Shown here: positions 31,581 to 50,562 of the stretch, piece by piece
How positions within the stretch are numbered: the stretch's first letter is position 1
Layout of the letters: each line of letters starts with the position of its first letter
Assembly (NCBI GenBank): GCA_041651115.1
Contig: JBAZJY010000002.1
Location: 158,855 to 222,854 of the forward strand
DNA: 64,000 nucleotides
Direction of reading: 5' to 3'
DNA from: Candidatus Omnitrophota bacterium
Lineage (GTDB): Bacteria; Omnitrophota; Gorgyraeia; Gygaellales; Profunditerraquicolaceae
The notes under the pieces: generated by a model
Told to the model about the DNA's origin: nothing
What the model saw: the letters and a program-made list of their open reading frames with translations, nothing else
Databases searched by the model: none
Position numbers and translations under genes: made by a program

Positions 31581-32360
31581 ATGATTAAGCAGAGATTAGA
31601 AAGACTGTATTTATCCCGCCGTATCTTATGGGATATGACTACCCGCCAGTTAAAGGCAAATTACGCCGGTTCATTCCTGGGGATCTGGTGGGCAGTGGTA
31701 ACCCCGCTTTTATTGGCAGTAAGCATTAATTTTATCTTTACGGTGGTCTTTAAGGTGACCATGAAAGATTACTATCTTTTTGTGCTGGCGGGGATTATCC
31801 CGTGGATGTTCTTTATTAATGCCTTAAATGAAGCCGCGAATTCTTTTAGCGTCAATCGCTCGATCCTTAAGCAGGGCGTTTTCCCGAGAGAATTAGTCCC
31901 GCTTTCCTGTGTCTTGGCGTATCTGCTGAATTTTCTTATCGGGTTTATTTTCCTGCTGCCGCTGTTTGCCGCCGCTGACGTGCGGGTAGCCGTATTCATA
32001 CCCGTCTTATTCCTGCTGGCTCTACTTGAATTTATTTTTATCGCCGGCGCAAGCTTGTTGCTCTCCTGCCTGAATGTTTTTTGGCCTGACTTACGCTGCA
32101 TGCTGCCGGTAATATTTATGGTCTGGTTCTGGATAACCCCGGTATTTTATTCATTAAACATGCTGACCCCTTCATTACGCTGGATCTGCCTTTTAAATCC
32201 GGTAACTCATTATATCGTTGCCTATCAGAGGATACTCTTTGAAATAAAGCCGCCCGCGTTCTCAAGTTTTTTCTTATTATCCTGCCTGTCTTTTCTCTCA
32301 ATCGCTTTGGGCGGACTGTTCTTCATAAAGAAAGAATCGCAACTGTTAAAACGGATATGA
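31581..32360 (+). CDS. wzm: ABC-2 type polysaccharide/O-antigen export permease
   Basis: 259 aa, 6 TM helices, and an ABC-2 signature at the N-terminus (YRRILWDMTTRQLKANYAGSFLGIWW). Confidence 0.8.
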   Translation: MIKQRLERLYLSRRILWDMTTRQLKANYAGSFLGIWWAVVTPLLLAVSINFIFTVVFKVTMKDYYLFVLAGIIPWMFFINALNEAANSFSVNRSILKQGVFPRELVPLSCVLAYLLNFLIGFIFLLPLFAAADVRVAVFIPVLFLLALLEFIFIAGASLLLSCLNVFWPDLRCMLPVIFMVWFWITPVFYSLNMLTPSLRWICLLNPVTHYIVAYQRILFEIKPPAFSSFFLLSCLSFLSIALGGLFFIKKESQLLKRI

Positions 32361-33736
32361 GCATAATAAAATTTGATAACGTCAGCGAGAAATACCGCAT
32401 TAAGTTCGTCAGGGAAAATAAAGTCTCATGGGAAGAGATATGGGCGCTTAAAGACGTCTCTTTTGAAATAAAAGAGGGAGAGGTATTCGGGGTAATCGGC
32501 CAGAACGGCGCCGGCAAAACTACGCTGCTTAAGCTGATTGCCGGTATGATCGTGCCTGATTCAGGCAGTATCAATGTCGGAGGCAAGGTTGCTACTCTGA
32601 TGGAATTAGGCGCCGGCTTTAACGCCGAATTTACTGGCAGGGAAAATATCACGCTCAATGCCCGGATCTACGGCTTGGCGGAAGACGTGTTCAGCCGCAC
32701 GGTAGAGCAGATCATTGCTTTTGCAGACCTCGGCAAGTTCATAGACGCGCCGATCAAATATTACTCGCAGGGTATGTATATGCGTCTTGCCTTTGCCTTG
32801 GCAATTTTTATCAATCCCGATATCCTGCTGATCGACGATGTCCTGGCAGTGGGGGACACCGAGGCGCAGCAGAAATGCATTAAGAAGGTAATGGAATTAA
32901 AGCAGTCCGGTAAGACCGTTGTGGTGGTGACCCATGATATGGATATGATCTGCCGGCTCTGTAACCGCGCCTTACTCCTTGAAAAAGGCAAGATTATTTT
33001 GCAGGGCGATCCGGAAAGGGTGGTTTCCCGTTATACGGAAACCTCCGGCGACAAAAAAGGCATAGCGGTAATGGAAAAGTCCGGCATGCGCATAGTTTTT
33101 AATAACGGCAAGATTAGCCTTAGCTATAACGGCGTGGCGATCACCAATAAAATGGCCGGCTATATGGCATTCCTTCCGTTTTCCAATACCTGGAATTTCT
33201 CTTTTAATCTTTACTGGGAGGCAAGGCCGTTGCCGGAGAACAAGATCATCGCGGAAGGCAAATCCAGTGACGCTGCGATTTCCCAGAATTGGCAGTTTTC
33301 CCTGGAAGACGGTTGTTTATGCGCGCAGGCGGATATTAAAGGGGGCATTAAAGAGCCGCATATAGATTGGTTACTTTCCTGCCAATACGACCAATGGCAG
33401 GTTTTAGGCCAGCGCGGCGATTTCCCTCCTTATCTGCATAGGACAAACTGGCATGATATCGGCCTGGCCGAATCACCCGGCGGCATACTTGCCATATCCA
33501 GCAGCGCGCAGGAGAATGGGCTGCCCGGGATCATTTTTAGCGTTGACGACAAAGACGCCAGGATAAAACTGCTTAATACCGGTATGGAACTGGAGTGCCA
33601 CGTTATACAGCTATGCTTAAACAATAATAACCTTATTTCTTTCCGTATGATGATTTTCCCGGAGAGAAGAAAATTTGATGAATATCTGGAGATGAAGAAG
33701 GCGCAGCATGAGCAGGGTTCTGACATCGCGGCTTAA
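32357..33736 (+). CDS. wzt: ABC transporter ATP-binding protein with C-terminal extension domain (Wzt-like)
   Basis: Walker A GQNGAGKTT, an ABC signature and Walker B, followed by a ~230-aa C-terminal non-ATPase domain. Confidence 0.8.
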   Translation: MSIIKFDNVSEKYRIKFVRENKVSWEEIWALKDVSFEIKEGEVFGVIGQNGAGKTTLLKLIAGMIVPDSGSINVGGKVATLMELGAGFNAEFTGRENITLNARIYGLAEDVFSRTVEQIIAFADLGKFIDAPIKYYSQGMYMRLAFALAIFINPDILLIDDVLAVGDTEAQQKCIKKVMELKQSGKTVVVVTHDMDMICRLCNRALLLEKGKIILQGDPERVVSRYTETSGDKKGIAVMEKSGMRIVFNNGKISLSYNGVAITNKMAGYMAFLPFSNTWNFSFNLYWEARPLPENKIIAEGKSSDAAISQNWQFSLEDGCLCAQADIKGGIKEPHIDWLLSCQYDQWQVLGQRGDFPPYLHRTNWHDIGLAESPGGILAISSSAQENGLPGIIFSVDDKDARIKLLNTGMELECHVIQLCLNNNNLISFRMMIFPERRKFDEYLEMKKAQHEQGSDIAA

Positions 33737-36104
33737 AGATAATTACGCGAAACTCAAGCAGCACTATAAGAGCGGCGGCATGGCGTATGCCGTTTGGCGC
33801 GGCCTGCAATATTTCGGTTTTCTATTCAAAAAAGTCGTAGTCCGGCCAAAGCATCCGCGGTATGAAGAGATCTCAAACGGGAACATCAAGATCAGGTTTT
33901 ACGGAAACGGCCTGAGTTTATTCTGGAACAATGCCAGGATCACCGAGGGCGCGGGTTTGAACCTGTCGGTGAATACGCTGGAGCAGTGGACTGATTCCGC
34001 AAAGGCGGACTGGAGTATTCTAAAGAAGACCGGCAATTGTTTTACTTTCAGGGTAGCGTTCAAGGAATTGCCGTTGAGTGTAATCTGGGCCATTGAGATA
34101 GAAGATAACGACAGGATCTCCTGGCACATGGAAATGGAAACAGAAGAGTGGCTGCATATTGATGAGCTGCGTATCGTCTGTTTTGTTTCCGGCCGTTATA
34201 AGATATGGATCGCCGATACGCAGCAGTGCGATTTTCCCCGTTTATGCGGCTGGTGGCAAGACCTTTATTTATCGGATGTGCCGGTTTCCCTGATCGGGGT
34301 AAGATTTCCGGCAAAAGGCGAGTTCCTGCCTTCGCTTGTCCTTGAGACCGCCGAAAAAGAATGGCACTCCCTGATCCAGAACCCGCCTATAAATGAAAAC
34401 ACGCACCTTATCGGCTTAAGGCATACTATCTCCCAGGGCAAACATGATCATTCCCCCGGCCGCTTTCATGTTTTTACCGGCCGCTTGAGTTTATTCGGCA
34501 AAGATAATTTATTGGATAGCAAGTTAGAAAACTTCCGGCAAAGATCATTGCGTAAGACGATCGTTGAGAAATCAAAGCTGGATACTTCCCGGCGGCAATT
34601 AAAGGTCCTTTTGGCAAATCTTCCCTGGTATCAAGGCGGCAGATGGGGCGTCAGGGCAGGTTCCCGCTGGCCGCACATTAAATACGAGACCGAGCGCGAC
34701 TATCAGCCGTTCCCTTTCTTTCTTGCCTACGCGACTTCTCTGTTGCAAAAATTCGGCATTGACGTTTCGATAATTGATGCTGTTGCCGGCCATATGAGCG
34801 AGGCGATATTTTTGGAAAAGGCGCACAGCATGGGTATTGATTATCTGGTCGCGGAAACCTCTATTCCTTCGTTTGATTACGACCTGGCTTTGCTGCAGAA
34901 GGTATCTGATGCAGGTATTAAAATCATCCTTTGCGGCCCGAATTCGGAAATTTATAAATTGGAATTTTTAAAGAAACACCCGTTCATTGATTTTGTGTTA
35001 TACGGAGAATACGAATTCACCCTGCTTGAATTGGTTGAATGCCTGGAGGCAGGCAGGGCCCCTTCCGGTATCAAGGGCCTGATCTATCGCGATAAAGCCG
35101 GGCCGATAAAAAATCCTCCCCGGGAACCGTTTGATATAAATCTCCTGCCGTGGCCGCACAGGGACAGCCTGCCGATGGGTAAGTACCTTGACGCTCCCGG
35201 AGAGCTGCCTTTGCCCAGCGTGCAAATGATCGCTTCCCGCGGCTGCCCGTTTAAGTGCCAGTTTTGCCTCTGGCCGCAGGTAATTTACGCCGGCAGGCAT
35301 TACCGCGCCAGGTCGGTGGAAGATACCATTGATGAGATGGAATACCTTGTCCGGGAAAGAGGCTTCAAGTCCGTTTATTTCGACGATGATACTTTTAATA
35401 TCGGTAAAGAAAGGATGCTTTACTTTTGCCAGGAATTAAAACGCCGCGGCCTGGACAAAACCCCGTGGGCAATAATGGCCAGGCCTGACTTGATGGATAA
35501 GGAGATACTGGAAAGCATGAAGGACGCCGGGCTGTGGGCGGTAAAATACGGCATGGAGTCAACCACGCAATCCCTCGTTGACAACATAGAAAAGAATATG
35601 GATTTAAATATCGCCGAACAGATGATTCGGCTGACCAATAAGTTGGGGATCAGGGTGCACTTGACGTTTACTTTCGGCCTGCCGGGAGAAACGATGGAAA
35701 CGATCCGTAACACGATCAAGCGCGTCCGGGAGCTGGACCCTTTTTCGGTCCAGTTTTCCATCACTACGCCTTTTCCGGGGACAAAATATTATGACGCGCT
35801 GGACAAACAGGGTTTTATCGTATCAAAGAATTTTTCCGATTATGACGGGCATTATAAAAGTACGATCCGGCTGGAAGGGCTTAAGCCCCAGGACCTGGAA
35901 ATGGCAAAAGAAATGGCTTACCGCTCCTGGCGCGACCATTTGAGGAAAAGAAGGGGATTTGCCGGGGACATTAAGAGATTTTTTACTTACTTGAAAGATA
36001 AGGGCCCGGCTTATGCCGCGTCCAAGTCTTTCAGTTACCTCAATTATGTTTTTGTCGGCAGGCCCAAATATCTCAAGATGGATAATTCATCCACGGAGAA
36101 ATAA
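33708..36104 (+). CDS. B12-binding radical SAM protein with N-terminal Wzt-C-terminal-like domain
   Basis: 798 aa. The N-terminal ~300 aa share motifs with the Wzt C-terminal domain (I.F.NG.SL..N..IT, HID.L..C, DFP). They are followed by a B12-binding domain and a CPFKCQFC radical SAM cluster. Confidence 0.75.
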   Translation: MSRVLTSRLKDNYAKLKQHYKSGGMAYAVWRGLQYFGFLFKKVVVRPKHPRYEEISNGNIKIRFYGNGLSLFWNNARITEGAGLNLSVNTLEQWTDSAKADWSILKKTGNCFTFRVAFKELPLSVIWAIEIEDNDRISWHMEMETEEWLHIDELRIVCFVSGRYKIWIADTQQCDFPRLCGWWQDLYLSDVPVSLIGVRFPAKGEFLPSLVLETAEKEWHSLIQNPPINENTHLIGLRHTISQGKHDHSPGRFHVFTGRLSLFGKDNLLDSKLENFRQRSLRKTIVEKSKLDTSRRQLKVLLANLPWYQGGRWGVRAGSRWPHIKYETERDYQPFPFFLAYATSLLQKFGIDVSIIDAVAGHMSEAIFLEKAHSMGIDYLVAETSIPSFDYDLALLQKVSDAGIKIILCGPNSEIYKLEFLKKHPFIDFVLYGEYEFTLLELVECLEAGRAPSGIKGLIYRDKAGPIKNPPREPFDINLLPWPHRDSLPMGKYLDAPGELPLPSVQMIASRGCPFKCQFCLWPQVIYAGRHYRARSVEDTIDEMEYLVRERGFKSVYFDDDTFNIGKERMLYFCQELKRRGLDKTPWAIMARPDLMDKEILESMKDAGLWAVKYGMESTTQSLVDNIEKNMDLNIAEQMIRLTNKLGIRVHLTFTFGLPGETMETIRNTIKRVRELDPFSVQFSITTPFPGTKYYDALDKQGFIVSKNFSDYDGHYKSTIRLEGLKPQDLEMAKEMAYRSWRDHLRKRRGFAGDIKRFFTYLKDKGPAYAASKSFSYLNYVFVGRPKYLKMDNSSTEK

Positions 36105-36105
36105 T

Positions 36106-37512
36106 ATGGATAAAGTAGCTAGCGCAGATATATTGCTTATACAATCCCCGCCCTGGGATACGGAGATGCCCCCGCTTGGCACGGCGTATCTTTCCAGCTA
36201 TCTTAAAAAATTCGGCCGCAATGTTTCGCTTCTGGATTTGAATATCGCATTATACCAGATGGCAGGCGAAGATAGTAAATATCTCTGGGAACAGAAAAAT
36301 TATGACTGTTGGGTAGATACCAATTTATTTAAGGATACCTGGTGCAAACTCCAGGATAATGTCCTTTCCTGTTTTACCAAAGCGCTAAAAGAATCAGGCG
36401 CTAAGCGCATCGGGTTGTCGGTAAATTATGCAAGCATTAATTTCGCGGGGGAATTCCTTAAGCTGGTTACCGGCCTGCACAAGGACCTGAAAATCATCGT
36501 CGGAGGGTGGGGGTGTTCTACCTCGCATATGCGCAGCCTCTTCCCGGCAGGCTCGGTAGATGTATTTGTCGTGGGCGAAGGCGAAGAGACCTTATTTGAA
36601 GTGATGGAAGTTTTAGACGGCGAGAGGCCGGAGGCAGAGGTCGCAGGAGCGGTGTTTAGCAAAAATCCCGCTATCGAGTACAGGCCGCGGCCGCCGATCA
36701 AGGACCTTGACAGCATCCCCTGGCCGACATTTGAGGAATTCCAACTCAACCAATATAAGCACAGGGTGCTCCCGGTTTTTACCAGCCGGGGCTGCATCGG
36801 CCACTGCAGCTTCTGTAATGATTGGTATATTTCCAAGCCTTATCGCCACCGCAGCGCCGGGCACATCTTCGAAGAATTAAAATACCAGAAGGAGCGTTAT
36901 AAAATACAGACCTTTAGTTTTAAAGACCTGTTATGCAACGGCGACATAGATGAACTTAGCCGCCTGGCTGATTTGATAATTGAATCCGGGCTTGGCATCA
37001 ACTGGGATTCCCAGGCCATCCCGCGCAAGGAAATGACCTATGACCTGTTATGTAAACTCAAGGAATGCGGCTGCGGCACGTTGATCTACGGCATTGAGAC
37101 GTTTTCCGATAACGTGCTCAAGCGGATGCGCAAATTATTCACCAGCGAGATCGCAGAAAGGGTGATCAGGGACACTCACAAAGCGGGCATACCGGTGATG
37201 TTCAATATCATCGTCGGTTTTCCCGGAGAAACAGAAGAAGATTTCCAGAAGACTTATGATGCGATAAAAAGGAACCGGCAGTATATCGACCGGATAGGCG
37301 CTGTCAGCGTCTGCCTTGTCAATGCCGAAAGCGACCTGGAGGTGGTTTCCCAGAATTACGGCCTGGTTTTAAGCCCGGACCACCGGATCAGGGCCAAGCA
37401 GTGGCATACCGAAGATAATACCAATACTTATTCGATCAGAAAAAAAAGGGCAGAGCGTATTTATGAACTGATCAGCCAGCTCGGGCTTTCATACGCGACG
37501 TTAACTATATAG
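36106..37512 (+). CDS. B12-binding radical SAM protein
   Basis: Start is ATG 36106, right after the upstream stop. It has a cobalamin-binding N-domain and a CIGHCSFC cluster. Confidence 0.8.
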   Translation: MDKVASADILLIQSPPWDTEMPPLGTAYLSSYLKKFGRNVSLLDLNIALYQMAGEDSKYLWEQKNYDCWVDTNLFKDTWCKLQDNVLSCFTKALKESGAKRIGLSVNYASINFAGEFLKLVTGLHKDLKIIVGGWGCSTSHMRSLFPAGSVDVFVVGEGEETLFEVMEVLDGERPEAEVAGAVFSKNPAIEYRPRPPIKDLDSIPWPTFEEFQLNQYKHRVLPVFTSRGCIGHCSFCNDWYISKPYRHRSAGHIFEELKYQKERYKIQTFSFKDLLCNGDIDELSRLADLIIESGLGINWDSQAIPRKEMTYDLLCKLKECGCGTLIYGIETFSDNVLKRMRKLFTSEIAERVIRDTHKAGIPVMFNIIVGFPGETEEDFQKTYDAIKRNRQYIDRIGAVSVCLVNAESDLEVVSQNYGLVLSPDHRIRAKQWHTEDNTNTYSIRKKRAERIYELISQLGLSYATLTI

Positions 37513-37522
37513 GAGACAAGAT

Positions 37523-39947: not shown

Positions 39948-39948
39948 A

Positions 39949-41202: not shown

Positions 41203-41206
41203 TGCT

Positions 41207-41332: not shown

Positions 41333-42499
41333 ATGAAGATATTGATGGTGCATCCTCATGACCTGCATTCTCCTTCGGAGCCCTGGACTATCCGCATCAA
41401 GAAGATCGCCGCTGAATTCAGGAAAATGGGGCATGAGGTAAAAATAGTTTATTTCCCGCTTAATTCCGGCCGCGCTTATATGAGCCTTAAGGAAGACGGC
41501 ATTGAAATGTATACCTTAAGCAGGAGGCTGGGGATATTGGTGCTTTTGCGCAATATTATCCGCATGGCCAGGCTGACCGGATGGTGCGATATCATTCATT
41601 TTCAGAAATGCTACTATCATGTAGCCCTGCCGGTATTGATCTCTGCCTTAATCAAGAATAAGCCGGTGCATTATGACTGGGATGATTGGGAGACGAAAAT
41701 ATTTTATTACTCTAATCCCAGGGTAGTAGCTGTGGGAGGGTTTATAGATATTTTTGAAAAGCTGATCCCGGGCATCGTGGATACGGTTTCCGTATCAAGC
41801 CGGCATGTGCGCAGGCTTAGCCTGAAAAGGGGAGTGCCGGAAAACAGGATATTCCCCGCATCCGTAGGCGCTGACCTGGAAAAATTCCATCCGGACCTGG
41901 ATCGCGGCGCGGTAAAAAAGAAATACGGCATTAATAACCATCTTGTTCTATATTTAGGCCAATTGCACGGCGCGCAATATGCCGAACTTTTTATAAAAGC
42001 AGCCCGCATGATCATAGATAAAGGTTTGGATGCCACCTTCATGATTGCCGGAGACGGTTACCGTTTACGGGAACTCAAAGAGTTGGCAGGGCAGCTCAAG
42101 ACTGGCAGCCGGCTTATTTTTACCGGATATGTGCCGCACGAAGAAGTCCCCGGCTATATTGCCGCTGCCGATATCTGCGTGGCCTGTTTTGAAGAAAATG
42201 ATATAACCAAATGCAAAAGCCCTTTAAAGATAGTGGAATACCTGGCTTGCGGCAAGGCGATCGTTGCCAGCAATGTGGGAGAGGTGCGTAATATGGCCGG
42301 AGGCGTTGCCGTGTTGACAAAACCCGGAGACGTGGATTCGCTTGCTAATGGGATTACCCTTTTGTTGCAGGATCATGAGTTAAGGGAAAAATTAGCGAAA
42401 ACAGCTGTAGAAAGGGCGAAAAGAAGGTATAATTGGAAGGTTACCGCGGAGAGTATCATGCGCGCGTATGATACGGCGCTCTGCGGCAGAGGAAATTAA
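41333..42499 (+). CDS. glycosyltransferase family 4 (GT-B)
   Basis: 388 aa. The C-terminal E..G..I.EA.A.G.P.V motif set is typical of GT4. Confidence 0.7.
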   Translation: MKILMVHPHDLHSPSEPWTIRIKKIAAEFRKMGHEVKIVYFPLNSGRAYMSLKEDGIEMYTLSRRLGILVLLRNIIRMARLTGWCDIIHFQKCYYHVALPVLISALIKNKPVHYDWDDWETKIFYYSNPRVVAVGGFIDIFEKLIPGIVDTVSVSSRHVRRLSLKRGVPENRIFPASVGADLEKFHPDLDRGAVKKKYGINNHLVLYLGQLHGAQYAELFIKAARMIIDKGLDATFMIAGDGYRLRELKELAGQLKTGSRLIFTGYVPHEEVPGYIAAADICVACFEENDITKCKSPLKIVEYLACGKAIVASNVGEVRNMAGGVAVLTKPGDVDSLANGITLLLQDHELREKLAKTAVERAKRRYNWKVTAESIMRAYDTALCGRGN

Positions 42500-42514: not shown

Positions 42515-43138
42515 ATGGTTATCGTTGGCATTATTTTATTCGCAGTTATGGCAGTTGCGGTTGTCTGGTTTTTTGCTAAGAAGGGCCGCAAGGGCCCTCG
42601 TAATGTTGACAAGTCGTCAAGGACAAGGAGCGGCAGGATAGACATTTACAGCCAGGACCTGGAGTTTGAGCTTAAGGACATAAAGGCAGGCGGCACTAAT
42701 AAGACGCGCTACGATTACGCGCATTGGTTAAGCCCTGACGACCAGAGAAAGCATTGGGTCGTGGAAGGAGAGGTTGGCAGTCAATGGGAGAAGTTGTGGA
42801 TAGAGTTTACTCCTTCTGCTTCCGGATATGTGCTGATCAATCTCAGGGGGTCGTATTACGAAGATATCCAGGAGAATCATCATGATGTCTGGGTGGATGA
42901 TTGCGATGTGTCGGGAGCGTCAATAAAAAACGGCGACTTTGAAATGATTGACCCTACTGGCAAGCCCGCGTATTGGGGATGGAACGGCACGCCGGACAGG
43001 TATGTAACCGACGGCAGTCAGTCGCACGGCGGACAATGCTCGGTCTTGGTCTGGCACGATATTGCCCTAGTGCAGAAGATCAGCGTAACCGCGTGGCAGA
43101 GATATACGATCAGCGCGTGGTTTAAGGCGTATAAATAA
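42515..43138 (+). CDS. membrane-anchored carbohydrate-binding-module-like protein, paralog A
   Basis: N-terminal TM, then WIEFTPSASGYV...LRGSYY...VWVDD...NGDFE (CBM_4_9-like). Confidence 0.45.
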   Translation: MVIVGIILFAVMAVAVVWFFAKKGRKGPRNVDKSSRTRSGRIDIYSQDLEFELKDIKAGGTNKTRYDYAHWLSPDDQRKHWVVEGEVGSQWEKLWIEFTPSASGYVLINLRGSYYEDIQENHHDVWVDDCDVSGASIKNGDFEMIDPTGKPAYWGWNGTPDRYVTDGSQSHGGQCSVLVWHDIALVQKISVTAWQRYTISAWFKAYK

Positions 43139-43148
43139 TACTTAAGCT

Positions 43149-43808
43149 GTGCAAGGAGGGAAAAGGAAAGTGAAAAAAGCCATATTTTCCTGTTTTTTCA
43201 TTCCGGTATTCTGCATTTGTTGCGGCCTTTTGGCCGCAGAAAAGAGTTTGGCTGCCGATATTAACGAGTCCAGCGCCCGGATAGACATCAATAGTGAAAA
43301 TTCCGCGTTTAGCTTTACTAACGTAAGCAGCAACGGCCAATGTAACGTCGCCGACTGGGTGCCTGTAAAAGAGCAGCCAAAAAACTGGCTGACGCAAATG
43401 GCGCTGCGGCTTGATGAGGAATGGCAGGAGCTTTGGATCGAGTTTACGCCTTCAGCCTCGGGATACGTAGTTATGCAGCTAAGAGGTTCGTATTATCCCG
43501 ATATCAAAAAAAACCGTCATGAAGTATGGGTTGATGATGTGACCGTGCAGGGTAAAGGCGCTGCGCTGGTAAACGGCAGTTTTGAATATCTGCGTAATCC
43601 CAACGGTAACCTGATTGGCTGGGCATGGGCTGACCTGTCCGGGGCCAAATACCGCCAGGTGCCCGAATTTGCCAAGCACGGGAAGAACTGCATCCTGGTC
43701 TGGCATGATAATCCGGTAATTGCCAAGATCGCCGTCAAGGCAGGCGAGAAATATAAGATCAGTGCCTGGTTCAGGCCGAATTATAAAAAGCCGCAGAAGT
43801 CTTCATAG
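43149..43808 (+). CDS. secreted carbohydrate-binding-module-like protein, paralog B
   Basis: Signal peptide, then the same WIEFTPSASGYV/LRGSYY/VWVDD/NGSFE blocks as paralog A. The true start may be GTG 43170. Confidence 0.45.
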   Translation: MQGGKRKVKKAIFSCFFIPVFCICCGLLAAEKSLAADINESSARIDINSENSAFSFTNVSSNGQCNVADWVPVKEQPKNWLTQMALRLDEEWQELWIEFTPSASGYVVMQLRGSYYPDIKKNRHEVWVDDVTVQGKGAALVNGSFEYLRNPNGNLIGWAWADLSGAKYRQVPEFAKHGKNCILVWHDNPVIAKIAVKAGEKYKISAWFRPNYKKPQKSS

Positions 43809-43825
43809 CTAGCCCTAAAATAATC

Positions 43826-45403
43826 ATGCGCGCATTATTACTGGCCATTATTATACTCTTCCACGGCATTAATAATTATTTCTGGCTGAAGCAGGACAAT
43901 GAAAGCATGGGCACGGATGTGGCCAGCCACGTCAGCTGCGCAGTTTCTTTCCATCAACAGCTAAAGAACATATTCTTCTCCGGAGAGCAGCCGGCAGAAA
44001 AATGTAAGTGGCTTGTTTTTTTGTTCCTTAGCGGCCCGTTCTATTGGCCCCATCTGGTACATTTCCTTGCTGCGCTAGCCGCTTTTATCTCACAGGACGT
44101 CCTTTTCTGGATCAGGTTTTCCAATCTATTTTATTTTGCGGCCCTCGTCATCGGCACCTATCTTTTGGGGAAAAAGGTGCACAGCACGCAGGCAGGCTTG
44201 CTTGCCGCAGTTTTTATTTCTTTGTATCCGGGCATATTCGGCCTATCCCGTAAATTCGGGTTGGATTTTCCGCTTACCAGTATTGTCTGTCTGGCGATTT
44301 ATTTTCTCCTAAGCAGCGAAGGATTCCAGAACCGACGCTATAGCGCATTGTTCGGGATTGCCTCGGGGTTAGGCATGCTGATAAAGGGGCAGTTCCTGCT
44401 TTTTTTGGCCGGCCCGTCTTTATTTGTGGCGGTTACGGGGTTTATGCGCAGCCGGGATAAAAGAAATTATTTTTTTAATCTTTCTTTTTCTGCCGCGCTT
44501 GCCGCCGGTATCGCTTTTGTCTGGTGGCATAAGTTTTTTTCTCCCGCCATTGAAGCGCCGCGGTATATAGATTTTTTATGGTATAAGCCCGGTGCCCTAC
44601 GGAGCTTCTATTTTTATTTGAGGGGTGCGTTTTTGTACATCTCACCGTTATTTTTTGCGGCGTTTCTCCTGGGCCTGGCCTTATATTTGAAGAATTTTAA
44701 GAAAGTGAGGCTATTTTTCCTGTCTTGGGCAGCCTTGCCGTGCATTTTTTTTCTCCTATTCTATAAACTCGACAACGAAAGGTATATTTTCCCATTTTTT
44801 CCGGCGCTGGCATTGATTACCGCGATTGGAATACTGGAGCTTGCCTCCAGGAAGTTAATGCGGCGGCTAATCATATTTTTTATCCTTACCGGCGCATTGC
44901 AATTTTTTGGCTTAAGCTACGCCGGCCTTGCCCCGCCGTCATGCTGGATGGTCCATAGCCCGCAGAAGAATACTCACCGTTTGATCATAAATGAATTTAA
45001 CCGGATCATGCAGGGGGTTAAGCCGGGCAGGAGAGAAATCGGGATTATTGAAGAGGAATATTTTTCCGGCGACCCTTGCCTGCGGCTGGCATACTTTCTT
45101 AAGCTGGCCGATGAGAAAAATAATGTCTCTTTAAGTGCTGATGGTGTGCGCATATATCATTTAAGCCTATCAAGAGAACTCCTTTCAAAGGCATTTCTTA
45201 GCCGGCAGGACAATTATGATTTTTTGATTGTTTTCTCGCAGGACGGGGAAGGGCCTGATTTTTCCGGGCTTGAAAAATTCTCCACTGAGCAGGAAAAAGA
45301 AATGGCTGCCGCGGCGATAAAGAAATTTAAAAAATTTCAGATCATAAAACGAAGGATCTTCTGGCCGGGAGAAATATATGTATTCCTCCTTAAAAAAACA
45401 TAA
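43826..45403 (+). CDS. GT-C fold glycosyltransferase (ArnT/PMT_2-like), paralog 1
   Basis: 525 aa, ~11 TM in the N-terminal half plus a soluble C-terminal domain. Layout resembles GT39/83. Confidence 0.55.
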   Translation: MRALLLAIIILFHGINNYFWLKQDNESMGTDVASHVSCAVSFHQQLKNIFFSGEQPAEKCKWLVFLFLSGPFYWPHLVHFLAALAAFISQDVLFWIRFSNLFYFAALVIGTYLLGKKVHSTQAGLLAAVFISLYPGIFGLSRKFGLDFPLTSIVCLAIYFLLSSEGFQNRRYSALFGIASGLGMLIKGQFLLFLAGPSLFVAVTGFMRSRDKRNYFFNLSFSAALAAGIAFVWWHKFFSPAIEAPRYIDFLWYKPGALRSFYFYLRGAFLYISPLFFAAFLLGLALYLKNFKKVRLFFLSWAALPCIFFLLFYKLDNERYIFPFFPALALITAIGILELASRKLMRRLIIFFILTGALQFFGLSYAGLAPPSCWMVHSPQKNTHRLIINEFNRIMQGVKPGRREIGIIEEEYFSGDPCLRLAYFLKLADEKNNVSLSADGVRIYHLSLSRELLSKAFLSRQDNYDFLIVFSQDGEGPDFSGLEKFSTEQEKEMAAAAIKKFKKFQIIKRRIFWPGEIYVFLLKKT

Positions 45404-46958
45404 ATACGCCTTTTGCGTAGCCGTAATCATACTTTTTCATGGCATTAACAATTATCTCTGGCTGAAGCAGGATAATGAAAGTATGGGCACTGATGTGGCG
45501 ATACACATCAACTCGGCAGTATCATTGCGCCAGGGTTTAGGCGAAATAGCTTTTTCCAGGGTAAGCCTAGCGCAGAAAGGCAAACAGTTCGCAGGGCTTT
45601 TTTTCAGCGGCCAATCATACTGGCCGAAGTTCGTGCCTTTTTTTGCGGCGCTGGCATCTTACCTGCCCCCTGATCCGCTTTTCTGGATCAGGTTTTCCAA
45701 TATGTTTTATTTCGCCATCCTCATCATCAGCGTGTACCTTCTGGGAAAAAAGGCGCACAGCCCGCAGGCAGGCGTGCTTGCCGCAGTTTTTATTTCTTTA
45801 TATCCGGGTATCTTCGGCCTGTCCCGGAAATTCGGCCTGGACTTTCCGTTGATCGGCATAACCGCCCTGGCCATGTATTTGCTTTTCAGCAGCGATAATT
45901 TCCAAAACCGGCGCTACAGCATACTATTCGGAATAACTTCAGGCCTGGGCATGCTGATAAAAGGGCAATTGTTGCTTTTTCTAATCGGGCCATTTTTATA
46001 TACGGCCGGAAACGGCTTTATGAACAGGGAGAGCAGAAAGAAATCCCTGGTTAATATTTCTGTAATGTTGGGGATTGCGCTGGCCATTGCCCTATCCTGG
46101 TGGTACAGGATGCATTCGGGACTATGGGGGGTTTATCTAAGATACAATATCCCGGTTGCGCTGCAGTACTTTTTGGTTACCGCATATCATCAAATGTCCC
46201 CGCTGTTTTTTACCGCCTTCCTCATGGGCATTGCTTTTTATCTAGTGCGCCGGAAACTCCCGCCGTTATTCTTATTATTGTGGCTTGTCACGCCGTGCCT
46301 TCTCTTACTTGCATTTTATACGTCCAACCATGAGCGCTATATTTTTCCGGCGTTTGCTGCGCTGGCGCTGATCTCTGTAACGGGCATACTTGAAATGCCT
46401 TCCCGCAAAGCCAGGCTGGCGCTGTTTTTATTTTTTATTTTTTTCGGGCTGGTAAATTTTTTCAATTCAAGCTATACGGCCGAGTTCTCTAGCTCCTCAT
46501 GGATCACGCATCGCCCGCAACAGCACAATCACCGTAAGGTTATGGACATCTTTAGCCGTGAGGTTAAGAGGCATGGCGCAGTAAACAGCAATATCGGCAT
46601 GATCGAAGAAGATTATTTCCGGGGCGACCCCTGCATCCGCCTGGGATATTTTTTAAAGCTTATTAATCCTCAAAGCAAAGTTTTTTTAAGCGCCGACGGG
46701 TACATCATACTTTACCCCTACGAGGCGGGATTTCGTGCGTCCGAAGGGTTCCTCGCTAATTTAAACAATTTTGATTTTTTGCTTGTTTTCTCGCAGAACC
46801 CGCTAAAACCAAGTTTTTGGAATGCCCAAAAACCTTCGGGCAATGCGGAAAGGGACGTCCTGCTTGAGGCGCAAAAGGCATTCCGGGATTTCAAAATAAT
46901 AAAGCGCGGCGTACTCAGGCCGGAAGAAATATACGTTTTTCTTTTAAAAAGGCAATAA
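45378..46958 (+). CDS. GT-C fold glycosyltransferase (ArnT/PMT_2-like), paralog 2
   Basis: 526 aa. N- and C-termini are near-identical to paralog 1 (ILFHGINNY.WLKQDNESMGTDVA, EIYVFLLK). Confidence 0.55.
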   Translation: MYSSLKKHKYAFCVAVIILFHGINNYLWLKQDNESMGTDVAIHINSAVSLRQGLGEIAFSRVSLAQKGKQFAGLFFSGQSYWPKFVPFFAALASYLPPDPLFWIRFSNMFYFAILIISVYLLGKKAHSPQAGVLAAVFISLYPGIFGLSRKFGLDFPLIGITALAMYLLFSSDNFQNRRYSILFGITSGLGMLIKGQLLLFLIGPFLYTAGNGFMNRESRKKSLVNISVMLGIALAIALSWWYRMHSGLWGVYLRYNIPVALQYFLVTAYHQMSPLFFTAFLMGIAFYLVRRKLPPLFLLLWLVTPCLLLLAFYTSNHERYIFPAFAALALISVTGILEMPSRKARLALFLFFIFFGLVNFFNSSYTAEFSSSSWITHRPQQHNHRKVMDIFSREVKRHGAVNSNIGMIEEDYFRGDPCIRLGYFLKLINPQSKVFLSADGYIILYPYEAGFRASEGFLANLNNFDFLLVFSQNPLKPSFWNAQKPSGNAERDVLLEAQKAFRDFKIIKRGVLRPEEIYVFLLKRQ

Positions 46959-46974
46959 AATACAGGCATCGGAT

Positions 46975-47703
46975 ATGGGGCCCATACTTTATTCCGTAGT
47001 CATCCCGGTTTATAACGAAGAAGCCGCGATCACTTCTACGATTAAACGCATAGAGGATTACTTTAACAAAAGAAGGTCAACATACGAAGTGATCCTGGTA
47101 AACGACGGAAGCACGGATGCAACCGTCACAAAGATCAGGAATGAAATATCCGACCGGCCGAACGTGCGGCTGCTGGCAAACCGCCGCAATGAAGGTAAGG
47201 GCGCGGCAGTCCGAAAAGGGATGTTATCTTCCCGCGGGGATTATCTTATCTTTACGGATGCGGATATGTCAACGCCCATAGAAGAGCTGGACAGCATCCT
47301 GGAACCGGGGTTTGCCTATAATGATAAGATCGTCATCGGCATAAGAGACGAGACGGTAAAAAATAAAAAAGTAGACAGGCCGGCAATCCGCAAAATAGTC
47401 AGCAGGACGTATAACTTCATGGCCAACTTTTTATTCGGCCTGAAAATGAATGATATCGGCTGCGGCTTTAAATGTTTTCCTTCGGCAATTGCCAAGTCAA
47501 TATTTGCCGAGCAAAAGATAAAAGGCTGGGTATTTGACGCCGAGCTTTTACTTAAGGCAAGGAAGATGGGCGTGCCTGTCAAAGAAGTGCCGGTATCATG
47601 GGCAAACCACCTCATTACCCGCGTAAACATCATTCCGGACAGCGCGTATTGCGCTTTTGACCTCTTGAGGCTGTTCTACTATAATCTGGCAGGCAAATTA
47701 TAA
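46975..47703 (+). CDS. GT2 polyprenyl-phosphate sugar synthase (Dpm1/ArnC/GtrB-like)
   Basis: SVVIPVYNEE, DGSTD and FTDADMSTP (DxD) motifs. 242 aa. Confidence 0.75.
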   Translation: MGPILYSVVIPVYNEEAAITSTIKRIEDYFNKRRSTYEVILVNDGSTDATVTKIRNEISDRPNVRLLANRRNEGKGAAVRKGMLSSRGDYLIFTDADMSTPIEELDSILEPGFAYNDKIVIGIRDETVKNKKVDRPAIRKIVSRTYNFMANFLFGLKMNDIGCGFKCFPSAIAKSIFAEQKIKGWVFDAELLLKARKMGVPVKEVPVSWANHLITRVNIIPDSAYCAFDLLRLFYYNLAGKL

Positions 47704-47735
47704 AACGCACGCTTATCTTGCGTTCCGGGGGTATT

Positions 47736-48617
47736 ATGGATTTTAGCATAGTTGTGCCGGTATATAATAAGGAAAAAACCCTTGAAGCCTGCATCAATTC
47801 TTTATTGGCACAGGATTATACCGAAGGCAGGTACGAGATAATATTCGTCAATAACAACTCAACCGATAATTCCTGCGCGATCATCGGCAGGCGCCCTTCG
47901 CTTAAGTTGATCCATGAAAAAAAGCAGGGCAGCTATGCCGGCCGCAATGCCGGGATACGGCAGGCAGAAGGTTCGGTAGTGGTTTTTACCGACGCGGATA
48001 TAGAGGTCAGGCGCGACTGGCTGAAAAATATCCGTTCTGCATTCGCGAAAAATAATTATGATATACTTATCGGCTGGTGCCTGCCGGCTGTTCCCGTAAA
48101 GCTCCTGGAAGTCCATAGTTTATTTATCCGTGAAAAAATAAAGGCCGCGCTCGCGCAGAAAGATTACCGTATGCTTATAGCCGGAGCAGGCAACCTGGCG
48201 ATAAAAAGGAGTGTTTTTGCCGCAGAGGGATTATTTTCGGCCGATTCCAATTCCGATGATACCAATTTTGTGATCCGCTGCTGCGAAAAAGGATACAAAG
48301 CGGGGTTTAGTGACGATATAGAAGCGAGAAGAAACGATATTAGCGGTATCGGAATTTACCTGCTAAAGAACTTTATTTCCGGCTGTTCTTACGTTCCGGA
48401 ATCAACGGGTAAGCCGTCTTTAGCAGCGCGGTTGAAAAACGCCGGACTGCTCATAAAATTCATGTTCAGGCATTTCCCGGTTGGATTAGGGATGCCCGTG
48501 ATTACGCTTTTCTATTTCATGGGGAATTTCTTGAACAGGATCGGCGTGATCAAGCCTTCCATCAGGCAGAGGCTGGTGCTTAATTATACGAACTTCATGA
48601 CTAAAAAGGGGCTTTAG
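47736..48617 (+). CDS. glycosyltransferase family 2
   Basis: IVVPVYNKE and FTDAD motifs. Start is chosen at ATG 47736. Confidence 0.7.
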   Translation: MDFSIVVPVYNKEKTLEACINSLLAQDYTEGRYEIIFVNNNSTDNSCAIIGRRPSLKLIHEKKQGSYAGRNAGIRQAEGSVVVFTDADIEVRRDWLKNIRSAFAKNNYDILIGWCLPAVPVKLLEVHSLFIREKIKAALAQKDYRMLIAGAGNLAIKRSVFAAEGLFSADSNSDDTNFVIRCCEKGYKAGFSDDIEARRNDISGIGIYLLKNFISGCSYVPESTGKPSLAARLKNAGLLIKFMFRHFPVGLGMPVITLFYFMGNFLNRIGVIKPSIRQRLVLNYTNFMTKKGL

Positions 48618-48622
48618 GGATC

Positions 48623-49720
48623 ATGGCCGCGGTTAAGGTAGTTTTTGTTACGCGTGAAGGCTATAATTTGCCCGGCGCAAGGATCAGATGTTATAATTTT
48701 AGCCGCGAACTCAACCGCAACGGCATAGCCAGTGAAGTGCTGTCATTCTCCGACACCTTGGGCGCAAAGGACGGGGAACGCGAGAGCCAACTGACCTTAA
48801 GGGAAAAAATAGCATTTAACCAACAGGCCTTGGCCAGGCTTTTAAAAAACAAAGGCGCGGTTATCTGCATCCAGCGCTTTAATTACCATTCCTTTGCCCC
48901 GTATCTGGCGCATCTGGTAAACCGGAATAAAATTATCCTTGATCTTGATGATTGGGAAATGCGCGAAGATCCGGTATATCATTTCGGTTTTTATCCGTCT
49001 TCCAAGGCGCATTATTTCACGCGCCAGATCGCCAGAAGAAGCATCTTCTGCATAGCGGCCAGTCGTTTCCTGGAAAAGTTCCTCCTGGAATTTAATAAAA
49101 AAGTTTATTATATCCCTTCGGGAGTAGATATGGAATTATTCCGGCCCGGACCTGAAATTCCGGAAAGGGAGAAAATAGTTTTTTCCTGGATCGGGACTTT
49201 TCACCGCAGCGAATACGTTGAAAATATCCGTTTTGCCGTGGATTGTTTTATGCGCCTGAGGAAGCGCTATGACCATATATTTTTGGAAATATTGGGCGCG
49301 GGCATTCACGGTAACCAGGTGCAAAAGATCATTGCGGAAGCAGGCGACAGTAATATTTTATTAAAGGGCTGGATCGCTCCGCAGGATGTGCCGGGGTACC
49401 TTACGAAGATAGGCGCGGGCCTTTTGCCGGTGGCCCGGGATTCAAAATTTAACCGGGCAAAGAGCCCGACCAAGCTCTTTGAATATATGGCAATGGCCAA
49501 ACCGTCGGTTTGCTCAAGTATCGGCGAAGCAGCAGAGGTCATCCGTGACGGCGAAAACGGGTTGCTTGCCGCGGATAAGGAAGAGTTTACGGAAAAGATG
49601 CGGCTATTGATAGAGGACCGGCAGCTTTGTTTACGTATAGGCAGCAGCGCCCGCAAGACAGTAGAGAGCAGCTATTCACTGGAAGCGCTTGGCATACAGC
49701 TGGCCGAATTATTAAAATAA
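48623..49720 (+). CDS. glycosyltransferase family 4-like
   Basis: 365 aa GT-B fold with the C-terminal EY.A..KP motif region. Confidence 0.6.
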   Translation: MAAVKVVFVTREGYNLPGARIRCYNFSRELNRNGIASEVLSFSDTLGAKDGERESQLTLREKIAFNQQALARLLKNKGAVICIQRFNYHSFAPYLAHLVNRNKIILDLDDWEMREDPVYHFGFYPSSKAHYFTRQIARRSIFCIAASRFLEKFLLEFNKKVYYIPSGVDMELFRPGPEIPEREKIVFSWIGTFHRSEYVENIRFAVDCFMRLRKRYDHIFLEILGAGIHGNQVQKIIAEAGDSNILLKGWIAPQDVPGYLTKIGAGLLPVARDSKFNRAKSPTKLFEYMAMAKPSVCSSIGEAAEVIRDGENGLLAADKEEFTEKMRLLIEDRQLCLRIGSSARKTVESSYSLEALGIQLAELLK

Positions 49721-50562
49721 TGCCTGAATTATCGGTAGTTATCTTAACTTCTAACAGCATTGGAACGATTGGGCCGTGCCTGGATTCTGTTTTTAGCCAA
49801 GACTATAAAGACCGGGAAGTGATCGTCGTTGATAACGGCTCATCCGACAGAACTCAAGATTTTATAAAACGGCAGTATCCGGCGGTAATATTATTAGAAA
49901 ATAAAGAAAATTTAGGCGCGGCCAAGGCGAGAAATCAAGGCATTGATATTGCCAGGGGCAATTGGGTCTTTACGCAGGATTGCGATGTCGTGCTGGAGAA
50001 TGGCTTTTTCCCACAGGCAATCGCTGTGATCAATTCCGTGCCCTTTGATACCGCGATGATCCAGCCAAAGATCTTATGCGCAGATAAGAAAACTATTTAT
50101 TCCTGCGGCATTTATCTTTCCCGGATATTGAAAAGATTCTACGATATCGGAAGGGGAAAGATTGACCGCGGACATTTTTCCGTAAGAAAATATATTTTTG
50201 GCGCCTGTTCTGCCGCGGCTTTTTACCGCCGGAAAATGCTGGATGAGGTAAGGGAAAGTACCGGCTATTTTGACGAGCGGTTTTTCTTTTTGGTTGAGGA
50301 CGTTGATTTATCGTGGCGGTTGCAGAGAAATGGTTATAAAGCATTGTATGCCCCTGATGCCGTATGTTATCATCAGGGCAACAGCTCTTTAACCAACGCA
50401 AAGATGCGCCAGTATCTCTGCTGGAGGAACAGAAAGTACCTTCTGGCAAAGCTCAAATTAAATAAAGCGCTATCGGCGCTGATATTTTTAATATACGATC
50501 TCCCGCGTTATATTTTCCTCATTTTAACCAACCCCTTTGTGCGTACGAACAATCAGGCTTGA
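49720..50562 (+). CDS. glycosyltransferase family 2
   Basis: ATG overlaps the previous stop. Motifs LSVVILTSN, VVDNGSSD and QDCD (DxD). Confidence 0.7.
   Translation: MPELSVVILTSNSIGTIGPCLDSVFSQDYKDREVIVVDNGSSDRTQDFIKRQYPAVILLENKENLGAAKARNQGIDIARGNWVFTQDCDVVLENGFFPQAIAVINSVPFDTAMIQPKILCADKKTIYSCGIYLSRILKRFYDIGRGKIDRGHFSVRKYIFGACSAAAFYRRKMLDEVRESTGYFDERFFFLVEDVDLSWRLQRNGYKALYAPDAVCYHQGNSSLTNAKMRQYLCWRNRKYLLAKLKLNKALSALIFLIYDLPRYIFLILTNPFVRTNNQA

Follow-up and report, generated by a model that had tools for sequence, protein, structure and literature searches.

The window, a 64,000-nucleotide stretch of a Candidatus Omnitrophota contig, carries on its forward strand a cassette of ABC transporter, radical SAM (rSAM) and glycosyltransferase genes. 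The ABC-2 type permease Wzm (31581..32360; PF01061 ABC2_membrane, E=1.6e-14) overlaps the start of wzt by 4 nt at its 3' end, and orthologues of it lie directly upstream of Wzt in the loci L002-L004, L007, and L008. The wzt ORF (32357-33736) encodes 459 aa, with a nucleotide-binding domain (NBD) at aa 1-235 (32357..33061) that matched PF00005 (E=6e-22) and has the Walker A motif GQNGAGKT at aa 48. The NBD matched Aquifex aeolicus Wzt (8dku/6amx) over aa 14-240 with E~4e-64 (3.7e-64 for 8dku), compared to E=1e-50 to 1e-43 for TarH/TagH. By its NBD, the adjoining Wzm, and the downstream glycosyltransferase genes, the ATPase is a Wzt-type polysaccharide ABC exporter ATPase. The NBD is followed by a domain, here called D, at aa 235-449 (33059..33703), after which a short tail leads to the stop codon at 33736.

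The next ORF (33708-36104) encodes an rSAM protein of 798 aa, whose start overlaps the end of wzt by 29 nt; the identical 29-nt overlap was present on the P0001 contig. Its N-terminal helical hairpin (aa 1-44, 33708..33839) has the family motif NYxKFKxHLKxGGLFYAFWRGxKYFxFL and is kept in some 20 D proteins, enzyme-linked or stand-alone. AF2 modeled it as two helices (residues 2-23 and 25-44, pLDDT 55-79), with a hydrophobicity below the threshold for a transmembrane segment. A second copy of D (aa 53-279, 33864..34544) precedes the radical SAM core (aa 296-798, 34593..36104; PF04055, E=4e-19), which is HpnJ-like, belongs to the B12-binding-domain type, and has the cluster motif CX3CX2C (CPFKCQFC, aa 513-520, nt 35244-35267). 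The match to the B12-binding domain PF02310 was below the cutoff of 32.1 bits (16.9 bits, E=0.0058), while full-length alignments to HpnJ, BchE, and other B12-rSAM models span the putative B12-binding region. The closest named family to the core is HpnJ (TIGR03471; E=3.5e-71, aa 300-740), but since the 240.5 bits fall short of the equivalog cutoff of 577.6, the protein is HpnJ-like and not HpnJ. In hopanoid biosynthesis, HpnJ acts on a lipid-linked sugar substrate, in the ring contraction of BHT-glucosamine (PMC9204698). The HpnJ profile begins at aa 300 of the window protein, so HpnJ is without D, and, unlike in the HpnJ setting, the context of the window rSAM has no hopanoid genes.

Downstream lies a second rSAM with a B12-binding domain (36013..37512; PF04055, E=4e-22; PF02310, E=1.5e-9), which probably starts at the ATG at 36106, 2 nt past the upstream stop, and which in L002 and L006 is joined to the preceding rSAM in one protein. 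It is followed by three tandem radical SAM/SPASM genes (37523-38731, 38700-39947, and 39949-41202), all matching PF04055 and PF13186 (SPASM); in the window they are without D, and their order is kept in L002-L006. A GT4 glycosyltransferase (41333..42499; PF00534/PF13692, E=3e-24), conserved in position in L002-L010, closes the conserved core cassette. Further glycan genes extend over 42515..50562, by Pfam two membrane-anchored unknowns, two GT39/PMT_2 (GT-C), three GT2, and one GT1, and none of them carries D in the window.

The preliminary description had read the C-terminal part of Wzt and the N-terminal part of the rSAM as copies of the same domain. All the motifs it quoted were found, and they are paired in the BLASTP alignment: RIVFNNGKISLSYNGVAITNKMAG (aa 245, nt 33089-33160), EPHIDWLLSCQ (aa 333), and GDFPPYL (aa 354) in Wzt; IKIRFYGNGLSLFWNNARITEGAG (aa 60, nt 33885-33956), EEWLHIDELRIVCF (aa 146), and CDFPRL (aa 174) in the rSAM. 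The alignment had E=2e-6 (22% identity over 181 aa), well under the E>0.1 that had been named as speaking against the relationship. The Smith-Waterman score was 86, compared to 32.8±4.9 for 1000 shuffles (z=10.8), none of which reached 86, and in a phmmer search of the 364 six-frame ORFs of the window, the two segments matched only each other (E~2e-4). Two profiles, built independently from 60 first-position Wzt copies and 41 enzyme-linked copies, aligned in hhalign with a probability of 100% (E=1.1e-48, 209 columns). The D profile set the bounds of the two copies given above, with 188.8 bits for the Wzt copy, of the first-position subtype, and 251.6 bits for the rSAM copy, of the enzyme-linked subtype. 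By sequence comparison, Wzt aa 235-449 and rSAM aa 53-279 are thus confirmed as homologous copies of one domain.

The same description had called the domain duplicated, and here common ancestry held while a local duplication did not. The two window copies are 20% identical to each other, compared to 45% and 65% identity to their positional counterparts in other genomes, and the Wzt copy has its nearest relatives among the D copies that other Wzt proteins carry in first position. Each copy is thus far closer to its counterparts elsewhere, which argues for an ancient duplication and anciently separated subfamilies. Wzt and enzyme-linked subfamilies of D are in general 18-20% identical, so that the 20% within the window gives no global sign of co-adaptation of the two copies to one ligand within the locus. 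At family column 186, both window copies have a His that is rare there, seen in 2 of the 60 first-position Wzt copies.

We also compared D with the classical cap-binding domain of Wzt (Wzt_C), as which the Wzt extension had been described. Neither the window Wzt tail nor 42 diverse D copies matched PF14524 (Wzt_C) at E<=10. Positive controls were three genuine Wzt proteins, equal in length and 44 to 48% identical in the NBD; they matched PF14524 at 1e-12 to 1e-21, and their Wzt_C domains aligned with the D profile with an hhalign probability of 0.1% and a Smith-Waterman z<=0.7. The Wzt carbohydrate-binding domain (CBD) was also absent from the Foldseek PDB top 50 of both D models. Together with the predicted 16-strand supersandwich of about 215 aa, these results ruled out D as a canonical Wzt_C. 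The classical CBD has a jelly-roll fold, spans about 145 aa, and forms dimers in which the C-terminal strands are exchanged (PMC9445017). The identification as a cap-binding Wzt C-domain was therefore dropped, and, with D unrelated to Wzt_C, cap binding cannot be transferred to it by homology. The description had also named an unrelated fold of the extension as a point that would speak against it; this was borne out in part, with a predicted fold other than the jelly roll of the CBD. D still resembles the Wzt_C of Escherichia coli O9a, Raoultella terrigena, and Aquifex aeolicus (6O14/8DKU) in being all-beta and directly C-terminal to the Wzt NBD; its start directly after the NBD hinge is the classical CBD location (PMC9445017). 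Like Wzt_C, it sits in a Wzm/Wzt ABC-transporter-dependent pathway, where it plausibly presents polymer to the transporter. Unlike Wzt_C, it can be repeated in tandem, with as many as 8 copies, and biosynthetic enzymes carry it too.

AF2 models of the Wzt copy (pLDDT 93.2; 16 strands and a C-terminal helix) and of the rSAM copy (pLDDT 87.6) had the same strand order, and D is predicted to fold as a beta-supersandwich of the galactose-mutarotase-like kind, with a linker helix at its C-terminal end. Both models matched PDB entries in Foldseek with a probability of 1.0, E values of 1e-4 to 1e-7, and a moderate TMq of 0.4-0.63; the best E values were 3.7e-6 (3k25) and 1.4e-7 (9ayu). At E<=1e-3 there were 47 and 70 matches, respectively, nearly all galactose-mutarotase-like, and beta-supersandwich domains made up all of the top 50 for the Wzt model and most of them for the rSAM model. 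The matched supersandwich proteins included aldose epimerases, GH15/36/38/63/65/94/97, PL8/17/33, OpgG/OpgD, and LacZ domain 5, with TMq 0.5-0.63 and E values as low as 1e-7 among the top 50, and the rSAM copy also matched GalM, OpgG/MdoD, YidC P1, GH domains, the PBCV-1 capsid, and a YgjK megabody. Identities in these structural alignments with galactose-mutarotase-like domains were 5 to 14%, and no sequence likeness to such domains was detectable in PDB or Pfam searches. Compared to them, D is smaller, lacks conserved catalytic residues, and is fused to ABC ATPases and radical SAM proteins. Assignment as an aldose 1-epimerase was rejected, with no conserved catalytic His/Glu/Asp in 319 copies and no Pfam Aldose_epim match.

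A profile search gave 549 D clusters at 50% identity (E<=1e-3), 154 of them at E<=1e-30. All members named to organism were Candidatus Omnitrophota, and the family had no match in Pfam or in PDB sequence searches. D is a previously undescribed domain family of about 215 residues and a mobile accessory module of an Omnitrophota glycan cassette that is rich in rSAMs and depends on an ABC transporter. On the exporter, the Wzt NBD is followed by 1 to 8 tandem D copies. With HpnJ-like B12-type rSAMs, D stands on either side, before or after the rSAM; with SPASM rSAMs, 1 to 3 D copies precede the SPASM protein, and an NBD-five D-SPASM arrangement was also seen. Other fusions were GT4-D-SPASM (P0145) and, in other genomes, GT39/PMT_2 followed by 2 or 3 D copies, and D also occurs as stand-alone proteins. 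Whether the domain travels with rSAMs in other genomes had been put forward as a check, and the answer was strongly positive: across many Omnitrophota loci it accompanies HpnJ-like B12-type and SPASM rSAMs as well as Wzt NBDs. All D subfamilies (Wzt, enzyme-linked, and stand-alone) conserve to an equal degree a signature of five Trp, Tyr, and Phe residues together with Thr/Ser/Gln/Asn/Arg, of which the aromatic residues may simply be core residues. No conserved Asp/Glu/His set was found across 319 non-redundant copies; the sole acidic column peaks at 61%, and neither window copy shares it.

All sampled D loci were rSAM-rich glycan cassettes, with a core of Wzm, Wzt, an HpnJ-like B12-type rSAM, a second B12-type rSAM, several SPASM rSAMs, and GT4, often with GT39 and GT2. 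Wzm and Wzt with one or more D copies, then rSAMs and GT4, were found in L002-L004, L007, and L008, and L007 also has a WecA/MraY-type Glycos_transf_4 gene; the contigs of L005, L006, and L010 end before Wzm/Wzt. In L003-L005, D is split from its rSAM. The Wzt of L008 has 8 D copies and no neighboring enzyme with D, while L009 has D-bearing enzymes and no Wzm/Wzt within 10 kb, so the pairing of exporter and enzymes is not obligatory.

As the best explanation, and one to which we give about an even chance, D would be a non-catalytic glycan-recognition module that brings the tailoring enzymes and the exporter together on one lipid-linked polymer. We infer the glycan as ligand from just the fold class and the fusion partners: all partners identified are an exporter ATPase, a glycosyltransferase, or an rSAM of one cassette, which makes the glycan the obvious common denominator. 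The ligand would then be the glycan of the cassette, with the exporter and the enzymes reading the same feature of it, be it a terminus or an internal repeat. The place of D directly after the NBD, its conserved aromatic and polar signature, and the action of HpnJ on a lipid-linked sugar also speak for this explanation. On Wzt, the 1 to 8 copies would bind the completed polymer and concentrate it locally at the Wzm channel, the job of the jelly-roll CBD in classical Wzt. On rSAM, GT4, and GT39, D would hold the catalytic domain on the same polymer for tailoring before export, and the GT39-linked copies could serve tailoring after export. Against a glycan ligand, YidC P1 and the PBCV-1 capsid were among the fold matches, galactose-mutarotase-like domains are not always carbohydrate binders, and the TM-scores of the matches are no more than moderate. 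The arrangement resembles that of carbohydrate-active enzymes with appended carbohydrate-binding modules (CBMs), where a non-catalytic, often tandem module sits on different catalytic domains acting on one polymer; the partners of D differ in being radical SAM enzymes and an ABC NBD. We found no published account of such a module fused to radical SAM proteins or an ABC NBD in the literature searched.

The shared module could instead read a cap, with D as the functional equivalent of the O9a/Aquifex Wzt CBD and the D-bearing B12-type rSAM making the terminating modification (e.g., a C-methyl cap) that Wzt-D reads. In the O9a-type WbdD-Wzt system, the terminator enzyme makes the cap and the Wzt CBD reads it, and the B12-type rSAM class includes methylases. 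The window follows a similar logic, with an enzyme gene directly 3' of wzt and a proposed coupling of tailoring and export via the same polymer; in the canonical loci L014 and L015 a cap-making methyltransferase gene follows wzt, where the window has the B12-type rSAM with its 29-nt overlap. The classical post-NBD position, the pathway type, and the His at column 186 also fit a cap. Class I methyltransferases of the WbdD type, found in L014 and L015, share no domain with Wzt, whereas here exporter and enzymes have D in common and the enzymes are radical SAM proteins. Against a cap, D is unrelated to Wzt_C in sequence and fold and so did not inherit cap binding, and arrays of 3 to 8 copies and fusions to SPASM, GT4, and GT39 are easier to reconcile with multivalent or general recognition of the chain than with a single terminal pocket. 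HpnJ and BchE, the nearest named rSAM relatives, are non-methylases (PMC9204698). We therefore regard a cap as distinctly unlikely, and the presence of D on GT4 and GT39 and in arrays of up to 8 favors a recognition module for the whole cassette over one pair of cap-maker and cap-reader.

D could also bind D or other cassette proteins, assembling rSAMs and glycosyltransferases on Wzm/Wzt as a membrane-associated complex, with the tandem Wzt array as docking sites and targeting that is protein-protein rather than protein-glycan. The free shuffling of D among many different proteins of one cassette would suit such a scaffold, as would its variable copy number on Wzt, the stand-alone D proteins with their conserved N-terminal hairpin, and the split from the rSAM in L003-L005; classical Wzt CBDs are obligate dimers working in trans (PMC9445017). 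In L008, however, the eight copies on Wzt have no D-bearing neighbors to dock, and the fold class is one typical of carbohydrate-active enzymes. Moreover, in GT39/PMT_2 proteins D follows the membrane domain, where characterised GT-C enzymes have an extracytoplasmic domain, and, if this topology applies, those copies would be separated from cytoplasmic D. Docking is thus rather unlikely in our estimate, though less so than a cap. We consider it very unlikely that D modifies sugars itself as a mutarotase- or epimerase-like catalytic domain, or that it is a mere structural spacer without specific ligand. Its top structural matches do include the aldose-1-epimerase-like 3k25, 3nre, and GalM 4bze, and a linker helix ends each D in tandem arrays; but the missing Asp/Glu/His set, the length of about 215 aa compared to 290-340 aa for epimerases, and the oddity of eight tandem enzyme domains on an ABC ATPase weigh against catalysis, and the strongly conserved polar and aromatic signature against a spacer. 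Of the initial reading of a shared module, then, homology and recurrence with rSAMs stood, the identity as cap domain fell with PF14524 and the fold, and the general idea that exporter and tailoring enzymes may share a targeting module is still the hypothesis we favor.

The jelly-roll CBD is the one kind of C-terminal domain by which Wzt exporters are thought to choose their substrate. D is a second, unrelated Wzt C-terminal module, common to the pathway's own enzymes. With 549 clusters and no Pfam model, the family merits an entry of its own, and D could be used for annotating such cassettes and as a probe for their glycan. It also offers a testable handle on how polysaccharide tailoring is coordinated with export. 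A more specific proposal, which we offer tentatively and consider rather unlikely, is that in Omnitrophota D may be a common handle tethering several rSAMs and glycosyltransferases to one lipid-linked polysaccharide, while the D array of the exporter reads the finished pattern of radical modification multivalently before export. If true, substrate recognition by Wzt would have evolved a second time independently, and D would be the first CBM-like domain to target radical SAM enzymes that act on a polysaccharide. The surface biology of Omnitrophota matters for their host-dependent lifestyle, and the D cassettes point to B12-type and SPASM-type radical SAM chemistry on a cell-surface polymer in this uncultured phylum.

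The 3′ half of the wzt ORF and the 5′ third of the adjoining radical SAM (rSAM) ORF encode a common domain of ~215 residues, here called D. The Wzt-type ABC ATPase (459 aa, 32357-33736; PF00005, E=6e-22; nucleotide-binding domain [NBD] of Aquifex aeolicus Wzt, 8dku, E=3.7e-64, aa 14-240) carries D at aa 235-449, and the rSAM (798 aa, 33708-36104; radical SAM core PF04055, E=4e-19; CPFKCQFC at aa 513-520) carries it at aa 53-279; the two ORFs overlap by 29 nt. All motifs quoted in the preliminary description were found where it had placed them and were paired with each other by BLASTP, which aligned 181 residues of the Wzt tail and the rSAM head at 22% identity (E=2e-6). The Smith-Waterman score was 86, compared to 32.8±4.9 for 1000 shuffles (z=10.8), and the shuffles together with composition-adjusted BLAST ruled out a compositional artefact. 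Searched against 364 ORFs from all six frames of the window, each segment matched only the other. When 60 first-position copies (the first D after a Wzt NBD) were compared as a profile with 41 enzyme-linked copies, the alignment spanned the whole domain (209 columns, probability 100%, E=1.1e-48).

The surrounding locus is an ABC-transporter-dependent glycan cluster with unusually many radical SAM enzymes, and its cassette extends over 31581-50562. The ABC-2 permease Wzm (31581-32360) directly precedes the ATPase ORF. From aa 300 on, the D-bearing rSAM aligned with the HpnJ model (TIGR03471), the closest named family of its core, at E=3.5e-71, well under the equivalog cutoff, and its match to the B12-binding Pfam family was sub-threshold only. 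It is followed by a second B12-type rSAM, three rSAM/SPASM proteins, a GT4 and two anchored unknown proteins, and further 3′ by two GT39/PMT_2, three GT2 and one GT1 glycosyltransferase genes. As listed (from 36013), the second B12-type rSAM ORF shares 92 nt with the first; a start at the conserved Met at 36106, 2 nt past the upstream stop, is likelier, and the two enzymes form one fused protein in the related loci L002 (8953-12810) and L006 (1-2931). The rSAM/SPASM genes are three consecutive paralogues (37523-41202) whose order is kept in all orthologous loci and whose best named matches are distant only (tungsten-cofactor maturase-like and twitch-domain rSAMs). The anchored proteins, adjacent ~210-aa paralogues with an N-terminal hydrophobic anchor (42515-43138 and 43149-43808) between the GT4 and the two GT39 genes, showed weak CBM_4_9 similarity only (E=0.014 and 0.0033). 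The window encodes another BchE/HpnJ-like B12-type rSAM 16 kb upstream of the cassette (14866-16326), which matched the BchE model at E=1e-60 without reaching the cutoff. At 22191-24879, genes for a PNP_UDP_1-family nucleoside phosphorylase, an MtnA-like (eIF-2B-related) isomerase and a class II aldolase-SCP2 fusion stand in a row, a set resembling in composition the DHAP shunt (5′-deoxyadenosine/MTA salvage); such salvage would suit a stretch of genome with so many radical SAM enzymes. A PNP_UDP_1 gene, flanked by two rSAM genes, was also present in the distant locus L008.

The preliminary description had taken D for the cap-binding C-terminal recognition domain of Wzt. Three plasmid-borne Wzt proteins of 453-465 aa, from Rhizobium, P. 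aeruginosa, and E. coli, served as positive controls; their NBDs share 44-48% identity with the window NBD. All three matched PF14524 (Wzt_C) at 1e-12 to 1e-21, and in two of their loci (L014 and L015) the next gene encodes a class I methyltransferase, a WbdD-like arrangement. No Pfam family was matched, even at E≤10, by the window copies or 42 diverse D members, NCBIfam gave no family name for D, and no PDB sequence matched its profile. Against the control Wzt proteins, the D profile reached at best E=0.33 with a negative bit score (bias-corrected hmmsearch --max), hhalign gave a probability of 0.1% for either D subfamily against the control Wzt_C, and Smith-Waterman z-scores were ≤0.7. D is, therefore, not a canonical Wzt_C domain. 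For the Wzt copy, AlphaFold2 (42-sequence alignment) predicted 16 strands then one helix (pLDDT 93.2, pTM 0.89). The model of the rSAM N terminus (299 aa; pLDDT 87.6) starts with a pair of helices, repeats this strand series and ends in a long helix that runs on toward the catalytic domain. Foldseek searches of the PDB with both models pointed to a galactose-mutarotase-like beta-supersandwich, with matches to aldose-1-epimerase-like proteins (3k25, 3nre, 4bze), to non-catalytic sandwich domains of GH15, 36, 38, 63, 65, 94, and 97 enzymes and PL8, 17, and 33 lyases, and to the GalN-specific galactosaminidase 9ayu, as well as OpgG/OpgD/MdoD, LacZ domain 5 and YidC P1.

The D family came to light only by exhaustive HMMER scanning, not by word-indexed searches, which were nearly empty (0 homologues for the Wzt copy, 2 for the rSAM copy, and 3 for the profile). 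Scanning 1.84 billion representative proteins with a profile built from both window copies and two metagenomic homologues gave 549 matches at E≤1e-3, of which 154 reached E≤1e-30. The best 151 were typed with window NBD, rSAM, SPASM and GT4 probes, and the remainder by Pfam. The majority of the typed proteins consisted of a Wzt NBD followed directly by 1 to 8 tandem D copies, e.g., five in P0003 and eight, as resolved in a run with a second profile, in P0119 (2244 aa). The arrangement of the window, D ahead of an HpnJ-like rSAM, recurred. The domain thus travels with rSAMs, a check that the preliminary description had proposed, on HpnJ-like and SPASM proteins in many loci. Further architectures were rSAM then D, 1-3 D then SPASM rSAM, D then B12-type rSAM plus SPASM domain, NBD, five D, and SPASM (P0016), and GT4, D, and SPASM (P0145), besides stand-alone D proteins of 260-300 aa. 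GT39/PMT_2 (GT-C) membrane glycosyltransferases with 2-3 C-terminal D copies (P0023, P0102, P0110, P0132, P0133, P0136, and L012 10001-13321) sit in rSAM-rich cassettes, and one cluster member is named by NCBI as a [quoted passage not shown]. Neither of the two GT39 genes in the window (43826-46958) encodes a D. A source organism was named for 8 of 20 clusters looked up, each time Candidatus Omnitrophota, and relatives of the window rSAM at 58-62% identity came from three Omnitrophota MAGs and two labelled Planctomycetia.

Although the window copies share a domain, the term "duplicated" used for them initially should not be taken as a recent local event, since they are only 20% identical and belong to distinct, old subfamilies. 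The nearest relatives of the Wzt copy were D copies in first position on other Wzt proteins (45% identity to L002, 41% to P0003), and those of the rSAM copy were enzyme-linked or stand-alone D (65% to P0001, 49% to a D-SPASM protein). L002-L004, the orthologous loci that are complete, share the order Wzm, Wzt (NBD and 3-4 D), D (fused or split), B12-type rSAM, second B12-type rSAM, three SPASM, and GT4; L005 and L006 end upstream within the locus but keep the remaining order. The window Wzt has the first-position D only. D is fused to the HpnJ-like rSAM in the window and L002, whereas in L003 (10635-11501), L004 (3808-4707), and L005 (1364-2275) it is a separate ORF of ~290-300 aa overlapping the rSAM start. 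Found in three related MAGs, these ORFs indicate that the fusion is labile, although they could also be frameshift errors. In distant loci, the cassette theme is kept and D is shifted among proteins: L007 encodes a Wzt with three D, a D-D-SPASM and an rSAM-D protein; L008 a Wzt with eight D and none on any enzyme; L009 D3-SPASM and rSAM-D-SPASM-D proteins, with no Wzm/Wzt within 10 kb; and L012 a GT39-D among eight rSAM genes.

Across 319 non-redundant D copies, the conserved family columns were Thr29, Gly33, Trp44, Ser47, Trp52, Gln75, Trp77, Trp89, Tyr114, Trp117, Phe126, Pro159, Asn178, and Arg186, with equal conservation in Wzt, stand-alone and enzyme-linked D; no conserved acidic/His set was found. 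In the window Wzt, this signature corresponds to T263, W278, S281, W286, Q309, W311, Y343, W346, F355, P388, N405, and H413. The conservation pattern speaks against epimerase-like catalysis and in favor of a shared binding or structural function. Column 186 is Arg in 72% of copies, including the first D of the multi-copy Wzt proteins in orthologous loci, and His in both window copies (Wzt His413, 33593-33595; rSAM His232, 34401-34403). The rSAM-linked clade typically has His here, but only 2 of 60 first-position Wzt copies do; its sharing by the two window copies may reflect locus-specific matching of specificity, or chance. Enzyme-linked and stand-alone D proteins also have a conserved basic/aromatic N-terminal helical hairpin, NYxKFKxHLKxGGLFYAFWRGxKYFxFL (rSAM aa 1-44, 33708-33839; also P0001, P0002, P0004, P0005, and others), which is missing from the Wzt copies. 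The hairpin is too weakly hydrophobic for a transmembrane helix and was modeled at moderate confidence only; it may be a docking peptide or, as an amphipathic element, anchor the protein to the membrane.

We favor, at about an even chance, the reading that D is a non-catalytic module for glycan recognition, which tethers the tailoring enzymes and the exporter to one polymer. Its partners (exporter ATPase, two rSAM classes, GT4, and GT-C) have only glycan in common, and the characterized enzymes closest to the rSAM core (HpnJ and, from one similarity cluster with it, MoeK5/Fom3; PMC9204698) have lipid-linked or natural-product sugars as substrates, and both points support glycan recognition. 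The preliminary description had suggested a special case, with the rSAM directed to, or making, the capped polymer end that Wzt reads. This is weakened by the tandem D arrays, the wide range of fusion partners and the nearest rSAM relatives being non-methylases, and we regard it as improbable. The main rival, which we consider unlikely, is that D docks onto D or another protein, assembling a complex on Wzt. In characterized GT-C enzymes, the domain past the membrane core is extracytoplasmic. If the GT39-D fusions follow this topology, their D would be extracytoplasmic too, placing D on both sides of the membrane, where protein docking would hardly explain it.

Wzt proteins with a C-terminal substrate-recognition domain and CBM-like modules on carbohydrate-active enzymes are already known kinds. 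In open-access full text linking Wzt or O-antigen to radical SAM enzymes, mutarotases, tandem CBMs or Omnitrophota, including a 2026 Omnitrophota genome survey, no description of the module, its fold class at this position, its arrays or the rSAM fusions was found. New are the module itself, without a Pfam or PDB relative at the sequence level, the predicted galactose-mutarotase-like fold class at this Wzt position, arrays of up to eight D copies on an ABC ATPase, and the fusion of D to radical SAM enzymes. As a glycan-recognition module, D would hold the exporter ATPase and the tailoring enzymes on one common polymer.
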